A stretch of DNA of 20,875 bases from Octopus sinensis (taxonomy: Eukaryota). Below, piece by piece: positions 6,122 through 18,962 of the stretch. A program made the position numbers and the translations under genes. Location of the stretch: assembly GCF_006345805.1 (NCBI RefSeq), contig NW_021823888.1, positions 1 to 20,875 of the forward strand, given 5' to 3'. The notes below the pieces were generated by a model that saw only the letters and a program-made list of their open reading frames with translations, was not told the DNA's origin and did no database searches. Within the stretch, counting starts at the first letter, position 1; every line of letters begins with the position of its first letter.

Positions 6122-6145
6122 TTACTGATTTCTTTGTTTCAGAAG
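6122..6145 (+). other. 3' splice site of the Hmx homeobox exon
   Basis: Branch-point-like TACTGAT (6123-6129), pyrimidine tract TTCTTTGTTT, then CAG (6140-6142) followed by AAG. GC content and coding character start here. Phase-1 intron. Confidence 0.75.
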
Positions 6146-6816
6146 GCCCGTCCGCTGTCAGTCCTGGTATGCCACCTAGTCCTTTGGACCCCAGCCACCC
6201 TCATCTACCTCTGCCTGAAAAACTCTCGCCGCCAGATTGCAGTCGACTCTCGCCAACGGTGGACGAAGCGTCACCAGATGTATCAGACTCACCCAAATCG
6301 TCACCGATCGATCGGGATTTGGTGGGTGACGGTACAGCCGATGGCGATAGACACAAAGATGACAAATCTAACAGCAACCCAAACAGTTGCGATGACGATC
6401 GAAAAAACAGACGGAAGAAGAAAACGAGAACCGTGTTTTCACGCAGTCAGGTCTATCAGTTGGAATCAACGTTTGATGTGAAACGGTATCTGTCGAGCTC
6501 AGAAAGGGCTGGTCTGGCCGCTTCGCTACGGCTGACGGAAACCCAGGTGAAGATATGGTTTCAAAACCGCAGAAACAAATGGAAGCGGCAATTAGCTGCG
6601 GAGCTAGAAGCCGCAAATATAGCTCATGCGGCACACCGAATGGTGCGTGTCCCTGTTCTTTATCACGATGGTGGTGCTGTCACTGTGTCTACGGGACCAG
6701 AATCTTCCAATTCCTACAGTAGCTCTTTGGCGTCATTAAGAGATCCTCGTTGCATCACACATAGCTACACACCTGTATCGCCTTCACTGCGACAGTCGTT
6801 ATCAGGAATGGTATAA
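6143..6816 (+). CDS. Hmx: Terminal coding exon of an NK5/Hmx (H6-family) homeobox transcription factor; 5' partial
   Basis: Homeodomain at 6415-6594 ([60 protein letters not shown]) is followed by the Hmx-diagnostic AAELEAAN and VRVPVLYH motifs. Stop TAA at 6814-6816. The ORF part 5929-6142 is intronic read-through. Confidence 0.96.
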
Positions 6817-11200: not shown

Positions 11201-11211
11201 TTACATTATCC

Positions 11212-11424
11212 TTTCTACTAGAGACACAAGGCCTGAAATTTTAGGGGAGGGAAGCTAGTTGATTACATCGACCCCAGTGCGTAACTGGTACTTATTTTAA
11301 CGACCTCGAAAGGATGAAACGCTAAGTCAACCTCAGCAGAATTTGAACACAGAAGGTAAAGACAGACGAAATACCACTAAGCATTTCACCGCGCGTGCTA
11401 ACGTTTCTGCCAGCTCGCCGCCTT
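11212..11424 (-). mobile_element. SINE family A, near full length
   Basis: Minus strand begins GGCGGCGAGCTGGCAGAAACGTTAGCACGC, contains TTTCATCCTTTCGAGGTCG...AAGTACCAG and ends CCTTGTGTCTCTAGTAGAAAG. Confidence 0.85.
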
Positions 11425-11432
11425 AAAAATAT

Positions 11433-11551
11433 ATTCTTTTCTACTCTAGGCACAAGGCCCGAAATTTGGGGAAGGGGGTCGATGAGATCGATCCCAGTAC
11501 GCGACTGGTATTTAATTTATCGACATCGAAAGGATGAAAGGCAAAGTCGAA
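11433..11551 (-). mobile_element. SINE family A, 5'-truncated copy
   Basis: Direct repeat of 11212-11330. Confidence 0.8.
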
Positions 11552-12827: not shown

Positions 12828-13010
12828 AAGCAGTGGAGTGAGAGATTCGTTAGCAGGTCAGAAAAAATGTGTATCGACATTTCTTCCAGCTCGTTACGTT
12901 CTGAGTTCAAATCCAGCCAGGGTCAACTTTGTCTTTTATTCCTTAGGTGTCAATTAAAATAAATTACCGGTCAAGTACTGCGGTCGATGTTATCGACTTC
13001 TCTCCTCTCA
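12828..13010 (+). mobile_element. SINE family A, diverged copy
   Basis: TTACGTTCTGAGTTCAAATCCAGCCAGGGTCAACTTTG ... GTACTGCGGTCGATGTTATCGACT. Confidence 0.75.
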
Positions 13011-13619: not shown

Positions 13620-13830
13620 ACTCTTTTACTTGTTTCAGTTATTTGACTGTGGCTATGCTGGAACACCGCCTTTAGTCGAGCAAGTCGAACCAAGGACTTA
13701 ATCTTTGGAAGCCGAGTACTTATTCTATTGGACTCTTTTTGCCGAACAACTAAGTTACGGGGACGTAAACACACCAGCATCGGTTATCAAATGATGTTGG
13801 GGGGACAAACACAGACACACAAACATATAT
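13620..13830 (-). mobile_element. Dispersed repeat (SINE-like) family B
   Basis: Reverse complement (...GATAACCGATGCTGGTGTGTTTACGTCCCCGTAAC...) matches 18410-18445 (GACAACCGATGTTGGTTTGTTTACGTCCCATAAC). Confidence 0.7.
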
Positions 13831-14056
13831 ATACACACACACAATAATATATATTATATACCACATATATTAATCATAATATATATATAATATTACGTAT
13901 ATATATATATATATATATATACGTATATTTATATATATATATAATATAAATAAATATAAGGTTGTTTTCGCCCTTGCTCCCTTAATGTGTATTATATATA
14001 GTATATATATATATTATTATATATATAGGAAAAAAAGCAACGAGAATGGATTAAAA

Positions 14057-14141
14057 TCTCGGTACAATTGTTTCGTACGAGGACATCTTAATAAGCTACA
14101 AAAAATGCAGTAAATACGAGGCTCGTACTCGTCAGCCGAAA
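14057..14141 (-). ncRNA. Type I hammerhead ribozyme (intact core, palindromic short stem III)
   Basis: Minus strand: TTTCGG-CTGACGA-GTACGAG-(40 nt)-CTCGTAC-GAAAC-AATT-GTA^CCGAGA. All CUGANGA, GAAA and NUH positions are present; stem II is 7 bp and stem I 6 bp. Confidence 0.85.
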
Positions 14142-14212: not shown

Positions 14213-14591
14213 AAGTTCGATTCCTGGAGATCGATGAAAGGTCTTGAACTTACAGAATTTGTGCATGTCTATATAGCTCATATTGAAATTGTTAATCAGG
14301 TTATGTGAAGAAATTTCGGATACAGTCATGCGAATTTCTGAAATCCGAGTAAGAAAGAAAGTGACTGTCATATCGTGTAGAGGAACAGATTGTTATTGAA
14401 ATTTACAAGAATCACAGATAAGTTCGATTCCTGGAGGTCCGATAAAAAGTCTTGAACTTACAGAATATGTGCATGTCCATATAGTTCATAGTGAATTATT
14501 AATCAAGTTATGTGAAGAAATTTTGGGTACAATCATGCGAAAATATCAGGGAATCCGAATGAGAAGCAAAATGACAGTCTTATTCTGTAGA
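14213..14591. repeat. Diverged direct repeat, ~170 bp x2 (period 207)
   Basis: AAGTTCGATTCCTGGAG...GTCTTGAACTTACAGAAT...TTATGTGAAGAAATTT at 14213-14381 and 14420-14591. Confidence 0.9.
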
Positions 14592-14751
14592 TTTTAATCC
14601 ATTCTTGTTGCTTTTTTCCTATTTGTAATCACCCCACTTGTCGTATGGTTAACACCATATAGATTTCCGGTGCTCATTAGAATTCACTTGAATCTCAATA
14701 CTTAAACCGAATATATATATAGTAATATATATATTTTTATTATATAGAAGG

Positions 14752-14802
14752 AGCTTCTACAGGACTAGTACTGTTTCATTCAAGAGAAATCTTCAGGAAG
14801 CT
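14752..14802 (-). ncRNA. Type I hammerhead-like motif at the left arm end
   Basis: Minus strand: AGCTTC-CTGAAGA-TTTC-tctt-GAAT-GAAACAG-tactagtc-CTGTA^GAAGCT. Stem I is 6 bp and stem III 4 bp; stem II is weak with a U.U at its base. Confidence 0.65.
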
Positions 14803-15142
14803 ATTTAACAAGATTGTATTAGCATTTATACATTTAGGCAGGTTTAAGGGAGTGGTGGTGGGGGACTTTTTGGGGGTAGGCATAGCGCAATATCATACTT
14901 GGGGGAGTGGTCAAGGTTCAGTGGTAAGTTAGATGAAAGAATAGATCAATAAAAAAAATAAAAAAATAAAAAAAAAAATAAAAATAAAAAATAAAAAATA
15001 GAAAAATAAAAAAATAAAATGTGTGCACATACATACATAAACACATATACATACACACACACATACGTACACATGTGTGCCTATACATACCTACACATAC
15101 ACACATACACATACATACACATATATATATATATATACATAC

Positions 15143-15198
<56 letters not shown>

Positions 15199-15509
15199 CA
15201 CAATCCAATACAGGCCCATTCCCTAATTTTAATTTTATTATCTTCATTTATTACTTTTGTATCTTGATCGCTAGAGCTAAGGATCCTGGCGAGGCAGCAT
15301 GTCCAAATTGTCTGTCTACTAGAAGGCAAGTACTCGTTCCCACACGCACACTCATTAGCAACGTACATACACCATTCGTACACTCATACACATACACGTA
15401 CGCACGCAGTTATTTCATACATCAAACATCTACATACGTTCACACGTTCACGATATACACATACGTACTCGTACCTACAGATTCATGTCTACACTTAGGA
15501 GGCTAGTCT

Positions 15510-15963
15510 CTATATACATACACCAATAAATATACTATATATATATATAGTATACATACATATATATACATATACACATACACACACACACACACATATA
15601 TATATACTCCTACATACAGATACATACCTATATATATAGATATAGATATATATAGACACACACATACATGTACACATATATAGATATATCATATACATAC
15701 ATATATATATAATATACATATATATATATACATATATACATACATACATACACACACACCATATATTACACACACATACATACACATAATATACATACAC
15801 AAACATATATACACACTATATTATATATATACATATATACACACATACATACACACAACTACATACATATACACACAAACACATACATACGTAAACATAC
15901 ATACATACCTCCATTCATCCATACTTACATGCACTTATACGCATACACACACCCCCATCTATA

Positions 15964-16003
<40 letters not shown>

Positions 16004-16637
16004 CACACTCACACATACATATACAAATATACGCCCACACATACATACATACATACACGTATACGCATACACGCACATACACATATACATGCGTACCCAT
16101 ACACGTGCCCACACGCACATGCATCCATATGTATACACACACACACATATATACACGTGTTCAAGCATACATACATACTCATACACGCACACATACTTAC
16201 ATATACATATATGCACACACTTCCACACATATATACATACACATATACATGCATACATACATATATGCATACATACACACACGCGCACTCATATATACAT
16301 ATACATATACACACATACACATATATACATATACTATATATTATAATATATATATATAGACATATATATATAATATATATATATATATATACACACAACA
16401 TCCACACACACATACATACATATACACATACACATATATACAACATATACACATACACATACATGCACACATACACACACTACACTACACCTACATACTA
16501 TATATATATATTATTATATATACACATATATCACACACATACACATATACACATACATATATACACACACATACTACATATACATACACACACACCATAC
16601 ATATATACACGGATACACAGACCCATCATATATATAG

Positions 16638-16672
<35 letters not shown>

Positions 16673-17075
16673 TATACACATGCATATACTTATATTCTAC
16701 ATACTCACATATAAACATATATATATACACACACACACATATATATACATGTACACACACATACACTATACATACCTATATACACATACACACATACACA
16801 TATATATATATACATACATATACACATATACATACATATATATACATACATACATATATATACATACACATGTATGTATATATATATATATATGTACATA
16901 CATACATATATATACATATACATGTGTTTGGTGTGTATATGTATGTAGTTGTGTGTATGTATGTGTGTATATATGTATATATATATATGTGTGTGTATAT
17001 GTTTGTGTATGTATATATATGTGTATGTATGTGTGTGTATATATGGGTGTGTGTGTATGTATGTATGTATATATG

Positions 17076-17106
<31 letters not shown>

Positions 17107-17144
17107 GTATGTATGTGTATATATAATATATATGTGTACATGTA

Positions 17145-17181
<37 letters not shown>

Positions 17182-17293
17182 GTATGTATCTGTATGTAGG
17201 ATATATATTGTGTGTGTGTGTGTGTATGTGTATATGTGTAGATATGTTGTATATTATATATATATATATGTATATTTATTGGGTATATATATA
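15510..17293. repeat. ~1.8-kb degenerate (TA)/(CA)/(TACA) low-complexity tract
   Basis: Directly visible; source of all His/Thr/Tyr/Ile ORFs here. Confidence 0.95.
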
Positions 17294-17605
17294 GACTAGC
17301 CTCCTAAAGTGTAGACATGAATCTGTAGGTACGAGTACGTATGTGTATATACGTGAACGTATGTAGATGTTTGTATGTATGATATATAACGGCGTGCGTA
17401 CGTTATGTGTATGAGTGTACGAATGGGTGTATGTACGTGCTAATGGTGTGCGTGTGGGAACGAGTACTTGCCTTCTTAGACAGACAATTTGGACATGCTG
17501 CCATCGCCAGGATCCTTAGCTCTAGCGATCAAAGATAACAAAAGTAATAAATGAAGATAATAAAATTAAAATTAGGGAATGGGCCTGTATTGGATTGTGT
17601 ATATA

Positions 17606-17658
<53 letters not shown>

Positions 17659-17818
17659 GTGTATGTATATATTATATATATATGTGTATGTATGTGTATG
17701 TGTGGTGTAGGTATGTATAGGCACACATGTGTACGTATGTGTGGTGTATGTATATGTGTTTTGTATGTATGTGCACACATTTTATTTTTTATTTTTCTAT
17801 TTTTATTTTTTTATTTTT

Positions 17819-17858
<40 letters not shown>

Positions 17859-18008
17859 TTATCATTCTTCATCTAACTTACCACTGGACTCCTTGACCAC
17901 TCCCCCAAGTATGATATTTTGCGCTATGCCTACCCCCAAAAAAGTCCCCCACCACCACTCCTTTAAACCTGCCTAAATGTATAAATGCTAATACAATTCT
18001 TGTTAAAT

Positions 18009-18057
18009 AGCTCCTGAAGATTTCTTTGAATGAAACAGTACTAGTCCTGTAGAAGCT
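18009..18057 (+). ncRNA. Type I hammerhead-like motif at the right arm end
   Basis: AGCTC-CTGAAGA-TTTC-ttt-GAAT-GAAACAG-tactagtc-CTGTA^GAAGCT, then AATAAA at 18068-18073. Confidence 0.6.
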
Positions 18058-18139
18058 CCTTCTATATAATAAATTAATTTTACTCTGCTATGTATTGAGT
18101 ACCTTACTTACTGTGGTTAACCCCGGATCAACCCGGACC

Positions 18140-18173
<34 letters not shown>

Positions 18174-18374
18174 TATATATATATATATATGCGCATACAT
18201 TAGATATAGAAATATGTATCCATATATATATATTTGTATATATACATAGATATATAAATATATATACAAATATGTAAATATATATATAGAGAGAGAGAGA
18301 CAGAGAGGGAGGGAATATTAAAAAATGTATATGTATGAATGTATGTATGTAAATGAATAATATATGCATATATC

Positions 18375-18576
18375 TGTGTGTGTGTGTGTATTAATCCACA
18401 ACCACCGCTTGACAACCGATGTTGGTTTGTTTACGTCCCATAACCAAGCTGTTTAACAAAATAATCAGTTAGAAGAATCACCAGACTTGACATCAATTTG
18501 TTCGGCTAAACTATTCAAGACGCTGCTACAGCGTCGCTGAATTTCAATGATTGAAATAAATAACAGAATAAAAGAT
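18375..18576 (+). mobile_element. Dispersed repeat family B, diverged copy
   Basis: Inverted similarity to 13620-13830. Confidence 0.65.
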
Positions 18577-18627
18577 TAGATATTATAGCATTACCAATAT
18601 CGTTATTAATATTACTAAATTCATTAC

Positions 18628-18846
18628 GGCAGCGAACTACTAGAATCGTTGGCACGTCGGACAAAATGCTTAACAGCACTTCGTCCGTCTTTACGTTCTG
18701 AGTTCAAATATCACCAAGGTCGGCTTTGACTTTAGTTCTTTCGAGGTCGATAAAATAAATACCAGTTGAGTACTGAGGTCGGTGTAATCGACTTGCCCTT
18801 CCTCGAAATTGCTGACCTTGTGCCAAAAGTTAAAATCAATATTACT
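18628..18846 (+). mobile_element. SINE family A, near full length
   Basis: GGCAGCGAACTACTAGAATCGTTGGCACG...TTACGTTCTGAGTTCAAAT...TTCGAGGTCGATAAAATAAATACCAG...CCTTGTGCC. Confidence 0.85.
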
Positions 18847-18857
18847 AAAGTCAATAG

Positions 18858-18962
18858 AAATTCCACCGAGGTCGACTTTGCCTTTCATCCTTTCGGGAAT
18901 TGATTAAATAAGTACCAGTTAACTATTGGGGTTGACGTAATCCACTAGCCCCACCTCTCTCG
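18858..18962 (+). mobile_element. SINE family A, truncated copy
   Basis: AATTCCACCGAGGTCGACTTTGCCTTTCATCCTTTCGGG...AAGTACCAG. Confidence 0.8.

Follow-up and report, generated by a model that had tools for sequence, protein, structure and literature searches.

Among Penelope-like elements (PLEs), the Hydra clade is diagnosed by a C-terminal endonuclease (EN) without the CCHH motif, the motifs CxCX5C, DKT, CxxC/CxH and RWK, insertion into (TA)n and a length generally below 3 kb (Craig et al. 2021, PMC8557442). The inverted-repeat architecture with a one-sided tail is already described there, while its origin and the role of the hammerhead ribozymes were posed as open questions. Work on the Poseidon element from Anolis carolinensis (PAc; Frangieh et al. 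2024, PMC11167929) has partly answered them in vitro: both target strands are reported to be nicked and extended, with reverse transcription beginning at two internal sites on either side of the tail, a dimer is predicted, and hammerhead cleavage is dispensable for insertion. Here, we analyse an inverted repeat of 3.4 kb in a genomic contig of Octopus sinensis (NW_021823888.1), an unplaced contig of 20.9 kb whose entire length is referred to below as the window. The repeat is a real Penelope insertion, ordinary in kind, and it comes from a Hydra-type family, new or uncatalogued, whose 3′ untranslated region (UTR) is extreme in its microsatellite content. Its value beyond the described architecture lies in this cargo and in a population record of priming and stopping. 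Our literature search turned up no account of this family, nor of any Hydra UTR rich in microsatellite, and the family may be catalogued in Repbase/Dfam or in the library of PMC13282606, which holds 30 recently active Penelope families with sequences on Zenodo.

The locus and its coding parent

By blastn self-comparison, positions 14736–16003 match 18073–16801 in inverted orientation. The arms that truly pair, 14736–15885 and 16923–18073, are identical in 1,097 of 1,187 alignment columns (92%), differ mostly by indels (48 gap events vs 17 substitutions) and are joined at an inversion junction with the palindromic sequence ACATGT (16920–16925). The remaining ~1,037 nt (15886–16922), which lack a pairing partner, are the extra reach of the left arm and form no separate interior. 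This long arm (14736–16922, minus strand) is tail-less, comprises the last ~2.2 kb of a Penelope-like 3′ UTR and terminates in what we call the short end, AATAAA followed by (TA)n. It is collinear with other copies, with 2,084 matches, 50 mismatches and 113 gap columns against copy L065, and covers the last ~2.3 kb of the 3.2-kb UTR in the full-length copy L070. The short arm (16923–18146, plus strand), delimited by the self-match and by family alignment, contains the last ~1.15 kb of the UTR, a hammerhead motif and a tail. There is no credible open reading frame (ORF) in the element, all frames of at least 80 codons being low-complexity or UTR read-through, and the reverse transcriptase (RT)/EN protein is absent from this copy.

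The element is one of many. In the 2.7-Gb genome, its right end gave 2,177 first-look candidates (40 scored, 98–100% identity) and the unique island within its UTR (15200–15510, minus strand) gave 1,140 (40 scored, 94–100%), compared with 197 for the RT part. Counts of exact patterns gave 5,962 for hammerhead ends and 2,844 for tailed starts, the latter after a narrower tail pattern (1,828 starts) had been extended by a third tail variant and homopolymer indels. The family thus comprises at least some 3,000 insertions, and its sequence is present in the data of eight studies and three organisms.

When 39 loci were fetched (up to 9.9 kb), the longer arms extended beyond the window sequence into an RT/GIY-YIG frame, with an open RT/EN stretch of 481 aa in the long arm of L039. 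Among 38 loci selected for the RT, nine read-through arms carry the hammerhead and the "tail" directly upstream of the start codon; since it runs into the ORF start, the "tail" is the 5′ leader. Seven hammerhead-to-hammerhead units of 4,834–5,837 nt were recovered, and an eighth (2,091 nt) is rearranged. The order in a full unit is hammerhead, leader, a frame of ~710 codons (2,131–2,140 nt) encoding the RT followed by a GIY-YIG domain at the C-terminus, a UTR of 2.2–3.5 kb, and hammerhead. The protein displays the RT motifs DIEDYYASI, FDVSMGA and GLYRDDGL and the endonuclease signature LVY...YIG with R, H, E and N, and a protein search returned 88 homologues at E ≤ 0.001, the best of them 54% identical. 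Contigs from sequencing runs that may be RNA also span the ORF, a coverage blind to strand, start and level that carries no weight here. Two observations speak against a coding parent: the frame is fully open in none of the ten copies that hold the start codon (at best for 679 codons), and Pfam and PDB sequence searches recognise neither the protein nor four of its homologues. Every part of the frame can nevertheless be found open in one copy or another, and indels are frequent in the assembly. Judged from these alignments, the 3.4-kb structure consists of two 3′-UTR copies from a coding Penelope-like family, both 5′-truncated and placed back to back.

The original prediction, made from the window alone, had recognised the inverted repeat, a hammerhead core and AATAAA in both arms, the one-sided tail, the (TA)n flanks and the want of a credible ORF, all of which are borne out by self-alignment and sequence. 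Its assignment to the PLEs is upheld by the frame in longer copies, and the genome search that it called for revealed the dispersed family that it expected. The RT/GIY-YIG partner with the same terminus, also to be sought, exists as the continuation of those copies. This is where the prediction of a non-autonomous element fails: same-ended longer copies continue into the RT/GIY-YIG frame, so the window holds a truncated copy of a coding family, and what had been taken for the inverted terminal repeats of a unit are two variably truncated copies.

As in EN-positive PLEs, the family has a single ORF with a PLE-type RT and a GIY-YIG endonuclease, partial tandems forming a pseudo-long terminal repeat (pseudo-LTR; nine read-through 5′ repeats in 38 ORF loci) that carries the hammerhead motif, an inverted 5′-truncated copy and a one-sided tail. 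No CCHH cysteine pair is found within the GIY-YIG domain (two Cys in P0001, one in L075 and L088, none conserved in the homologues). The linker CxCX5C reads CNCPDKTTC or CNCHDKTTC, the DKG-to-DKT change is represented by SDKT in L075, and CxxC and CxH surround the conserved E and N (CDLC..SE, LNK, CMH). At the RWK position, RWR is aligned here, with RWA and RWL in sister families of the genome. All 30 tailed ends compared, and the short ends examined, abut (TA)n; one of 11 ends displayed in a position-ordered sample (see below) adjoins (CA)n. On these sequence motifs, we classify the family as Hydra-type with hardly any reservation. The Neptune clade, with its CX2-5CxxC linker and CCHH, was rejected, the linker being CxCX5C and CCHH being absent.

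The likeness to the Hydra clade, including Hydra-1_Obim of Octopus bimaculoides (PMC8557442), extends over the single frame with RT and C-terminal GIY-YIG, the DKT, CxCX5C, CxxC and CxH motifs, the missing CCHH, the canonical hammerhead layout (ctgaNgat...tgaa, acag...ctgt-a), the (TA)n target, the partial tandems, the inverted 5′ copy and the one-sided tail. The homologue P0005 (40% identical over 97% of the query) is close, in a comparison by eye, to the published Hydra-2_Amil. The differences are RWR instead of RWK, an 8-nt loop III, a tail of ~70 nt against 30–40 bp in published Hydra, and the microsatellite-rich 3′ UTR of 2.2–3.5 kb. Complete published Hydra families measure 2.1–2.7 kb, compared with 4.8–5.8 kb for the unit here; the coding part is of the usual size, and the limit of 3 kb expresses a general tendency and is non-diagnostic. 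The units are twice the published lengths because of the 3′ UTR, ~69% of which is simple repeat. Since its hammerhead and, by eye, its protein clearly differ from those of Hydra-1_Obim (2,507 bp), the family is distinct from that element.

At least four further Hydra-type families occur in the same genome (L108–L121, on contigs C1, C2, C3, C5, C8, C12, C17 and C19 and on small contigs). They share the protein motifs wholly or partly, at 32–46% identity, and the (TA)n ends; their frames are open over 717, 727, 842 and 876–899 codons, and their 3′ UTRs measure 0.2–2.0 kb. On a wider scale, the Penelope elements of Drosophila virilis and Adineta vaga (PMC2377424, PMC3846280) likewise have large, variable inverted repeats, a tandem-derived pseudo-LTR and an optional short tail, while the D. 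virilis element, unlike the octopus family, has a TATA-less internal promoter and an intron (PMC2377424).

Hammerheads, promoter candidates and termini

The left hammerhead motif (14752–14802, minus strand) is an intact type-I motif, identified by a descriptor match and by the published Hydra layout, with a predicted cleavage site at 14758/14757. Read from 14802 to 14752, it consists of a 6-bp stem I, CUGAAGA, a 3-bp stem II, GAAA, a 4-bp stem III and GUA. The descriptor, which was drafted after the motif had been seen, finds this copy as its sole match in the window and gave one match in 300 dinucleotide shuffles. The right motif (18009–18057, plus strand; predicted cleavage at 18051/18052) keeps its core intact and fails the descriptor owing to two single-base deletions, in a stem I strand and in loop II. 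Across the family, 114 of 136 arms pass, with variation at N7 and in the loops. In Rfam there was no hammerhead match among the best 150 of 199 matches listed or in focused searches, which returned microRNA-like microsatellite noise only, and minimum-energy folding does not give the hammerhead (z −0.47 and −0.25). Because the lowest-energy fold is a competing hairpin that covers the cut site, the hammerhead, though retained, is likely to be switched off in the templates that are copied.

In the tiny palindromes that make up many of the loci (L134–L186), stem II varies, with paired changes in some (e.g. L154 and L180), and N7 is A or T. This pattern in short copies fits selection on the fold.

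Ahead of each motif stands a TATAAA, a candidate TATA box, at 14825–14830 (minus strand) and 17980–17985 (plus strand), 28 and 29 nt before the first hammerhead base, respectively; the spacing is 29 nt in all four reference copies. Behind the motifs, the AATAAA of the short end (14736–14741, minus strand), a loose end in short-read contigs too, adjoins (TA)n, and that of the right arm (18068–18073, plus strand) is followed by the tail (18074–18146, plus strand). Family comparison gives the tail 69–73 nt, with an end at ~18142–18146, its last bases being shared with the (TA)n target; the position of this end is identical in 30 of 30 loci. The (TA)n-rich stretch at 14711–14735 and the (TA)n at 18147–18190 are remnants of the target, within whose repeats a target-site duplication would be indistinguishable.

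One tail per pair and the origin of the arms

Our population analyses revealed a near-invariant arrangement. The position-ordered sample consisted of the first 60 loci listed on contig C1, each with one exact 35-nt match, and contained 115 arms, 58 tailed, 56 short and one part-tailed. One tailed and one short end are combined in 51 of its 52 inverted pairs; the 52nd is three-armed, and its outer ends are again one tailed and one short. Earlier sets had shown one tail in 45 of 45 simple pairs, although 39 of those loci had been selected for the tail. The genome-wide counts given above, with tailed starts at 2,844 for 5,962 hammerhead ends, accord with the rule. Relative to the cleavage site, the insertion ends occupy two fixed, TA-like positions, ~20 and ~95 nt downstream, with one per side of the insertion.

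The two arms of a pair also resemble each other in sequence. They belong to the same subfamily in all 48 classifiable pairs; in subfamily A, they diverge by 0.36% within a locus compared with 0.93% between loci, and 38 locus-variants are present in both arms. Their lengths are near-equal in 13 of 34 pairs, where 1.9 would be expected and 20,000 permutations gave a maximum of 8. The pair L045, with only 8 bp paired and representing two unrelated insertions, was left out of the arm-length and variant counts.

Hammerhead cleavage does not define the termini. Of 2,844 tailed arms, 2,725 (96%) retain the five bases that precede the cut site, and since the loss at the cut site is close to background error, the ends are not made by cleavage. 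With both ends downstream of the site, the proposed "ribozyme-processed" nature of the element is not supported. In 33 of the 52 inverted pairs, the tiny ones, the cut sites are separated by 52–95 nt, the next size being 229 nt. Among their 66 arms, 24 reach the first hammerhead bases and none passes the first base. This base is 45 nt from the cut site, on its upstream side, and follows TATAAA at 29 nt. Eight stops scored at 49 were alignment overshoot, none of these arms continuing upstream on recheck.

These data are very probably accounted for by inverted, truncated copies of a Hydra-type UTR that are likely to stem from one event, in which both (TA)n strands prime on the same uncleaved RNA. 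Taken by itself, the twin-priming mechanism is the one that we favour, with less assurance. The element's own enzyme would nick both strands of (TA)n, which reads alike on either, and each 3′ end would then prime at one of the two TA-like sites. The same uncut RNA would serve as the template for both strands, and because the two resulting cDNAs are antisense, they would end up inverted and be linked head to head, either through short microhomologies or in hairpin form. Priming in the 3′ repeat would give long arms with microsatellite UTR, as at the window locus, and priming in the 5′ repeat would proceed to the RNA 5′ end, leaving tiny palindromes. The weaker part is the prediction that this 5′ end lies at the first hammerhead base, behind the TATA box, since the stop coincides with AGCT and the D. 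virilis promoter is TATA-less. The full scenario is tentative, and we regard it as possible but doubtful: the family would record the whole Penelope cycle, with a TATA-driven RNA that starts exactly at the hammerhead, escapes cleavage and is primed by each of the two strands of a (TA)n target through TA-like sites, most events aborting as palindromes of 50–95 nt and the rest exporting up to 3.5 kb of microsatellite, including fresh (TA)n targets, so that the family seeds its own landing sites.

PAc offers the closest experimental parallel, with two start sites bracketing the tail and an AT-rich target (PMC11167929). It belongs to a different clade, however, and its start sites are found within the ORF, in a stem-loop rich in AC, whereas those described here are TA-like and belong to the leader, ahead of the start codon. 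In the part of that report cited here, we found no description for PAc of a one-tail-per-pair rule or of a stop at the first hammerhead base.

Several observations do not sit easily with twin priming. In the position-ordered sample, 11 of the 115 arms lack a partner in the fetched stretch. The variant analysis is valid for subfamily A, subfamily B being misaligned at the island and left unused; 32 locus-variants are confined to one arm, and an arm's own partner is strictly the closest in only 3 of 36 pairs and tied in 21. The shared variants could also reflect conversion between arms or copying of one arm from the other. The AGCT at the first hammerhead base is self-complementary, and the stop may be a joining hotspot instead of an RNA end; moreover, 42 of the 66 tiny arms stop earlier. 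Some 5′ repeats extend upstream of the hammerhead, by as much as 1.4 kb or more, which needs read-through, template jumping or circular RNA. A circular template has been proposed (PMC4209133) and would likewise give read-through of the cut site. From the described systems, the Drosophila Penelope promoter is internal and TATA-less (PMC2377424), and the PAc start sites have no homology to the target (PMC11167929).

Another possibility would be that the family is the same but the second arm arises by fold-back, the first cDNA snapping back and being copied as DNA to the short end. Such a step is in keeping with hairpin junctions that are nearly perfect in 13 of 34 pairs, with the variants shared by both arms and with palindromic junctions such as ACATGT and AAGCTT. 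Nevertheless, if a tailed first strand folded back, its arm would always have to equal or exceed the other in length. The longer arm carries the tail in 21 of 33 asymmetric pairs and the shorter arm in 12, the window locus among the latter, and extension of both strands has been reported in vitro for Poseidon (PMC11167929). We consider fold-back improbable as the source of the second arm.

Far less probable still is a separate non-autonomous, ribozyme-processed (retrozyme-like) element moved by a partner PLE. The window copy has no ORF, the majority of copies are short and equally ORF-less, and animal retrozymes derive from PLE repeats (bioRxiv 10.64898/2026.07.22.740005); metazoan non-LTR retrozymes, like the window copy, are non-coding, PLE-related and equipped with a type-I hammerhead (the same preprint and PMC7229834). 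Retrozymes, however, are tandem non-coding monomers (bioRxiv 10.64898/2026.07.22.740005), whereas the window element is a truncated coding element: truncation points vary continuously, long copies extend into the ORF, there is no fixed 5′ end at the length of the window copy, no tandem monomer arrays occur in the 137 family loci fetched, and nearly all tailed arms pass the cleavage site. A separate element is already largely refuted by the continuity with the ORF, and a non-LTR retrozyme with fixed-end tandem monomers was rejected on the same contiguity and on the variable truncation. Finally, a long-read fold-back chimera that duplicated one arm during assembly is highly unlikely, despite the predominance of indels between the arms and the unplaced contig that forms the window, given that the arms differ in their flanks and in their ends, both ends being typical of the family, that the one-tail rule holds at ~100 other pairs on chromosome-scale contigs and that short-read contigs from other runs show both element ends joined to (TA)n.

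Three minor features were also noted. In the tiny palindromes L131, L134 and L146 (contig C1), two extra C residues, read in the cDNA direction, come after an arm that ends at the first hammerhead base; they could come from cap copying or non-templated addition. The short ends of L033, L034, L040, L042, L046 and L063 have an additional TAAA unit or short A-run, foreign to the element, between AATAAA and (TA)n, which suggests slippage during priming. L184 and L185 (contig C1) each contain two near-identical tiny palindromes, 1.5–1.8 kb apart, which are probably local duplications of host DNA or of the assembly.

Microsatellite cargo and genomic context

Simple repeats make up 67% of the element; the figure is 18% in the remaining window sequence and 13% across 190 kb of flanking DNA from elsewhere. 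In 25 copies, the 3′ UTR measures 2,171–3,538 nt, with a median of 69% simple repeat and a G-rich sense strand. The unpaired 1-kb mosaic of the window (15886–16922, minus strand) aligns to L065 at 93.7% identity over 1,004 nt with a score of 1,691, whereas 20 block shuffles scored 619–697 and 12 other microsatellites 47–244. By this alignment, the mosaic is inherited position by position as cargo of the element, as had been anticipated along with the (TA)n target. Pen1_Av also has long spacers before its 3′ repeat, but these are copy-specific captured host DNA (PMC3846280), whereas the microsatellite here is inherited and common to a subfamily. The cargo appears to turn over fast, since the two subfamilies have their unique islands in common but, by eye, different mosaics. 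Four other Hydra-type families of the genome have 3′ UTRs of ~0.2, 0.63, 1.0 and 1.7–2.0 kb with 6–30% simple repeat (2–5 copies each); in the 842-codon family, the share is 26–28%. The family described here is the extreme end of this gradient in UTR length and simple-repeat content.

It had also been supposed that such insertions contribute to the microsatellite load. They do, but their share is small. In the unbiased sample, counting paired arms only, the mean simple-repeat content of an insertion is 449 bp and its median size 86 nt; a mean of 3.0 kb with 1.9 kb of simple repeat was rejected as the product of locus selection bias. The total is estimated at ~1.3 Mb (~0.05% of the genome), compared with a simple-repeat share of 13% in flanking DNA, and the family explains little of the load.

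The surroundings of the element contain other repeats. To its left, a direct repeat of ~170 nt (14213–14381 and 14420–14591; 83%) lies inside a 35-nt inverted repeat (14025–14059 and 14589–14622; 94%), an arrangement that resembles a non-autonomous DNA transposon of small size, with tandem units in its interior. Short interspersed repeat copies of 72–79% identity at 11209–11550, 12843–12999, 13640–13810, 18400–18460 and 18624–18949 presumably represent SINE types common in octopus genomes. A homeodomain exon (PF00046, E 6.5e-22), which we take by its motif to be HMX/NK5-like, occupies 6145–6816 on the plus strand, and the element lies ~8 kb downstream of its stop codon.

To conclude, the family provides ~3,000 young insertions in which the one-tail rule is nearly invariant, the arms come from the same template, the 5′ stop is hard and almost no ends lie at the cleavage site, and this record makes the two-primer model testable both in vivo and in vitro. 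It also represents a coding retrotransposon with UTR making up as much as 60% of its RNA and kilobases of simple repeat aboard. The amount of microsatellite due to this family alone is small. Because annotation masks such cargo as "simple repeat", some of the microsatellite mosaics of the genome are mobile-element DNA.

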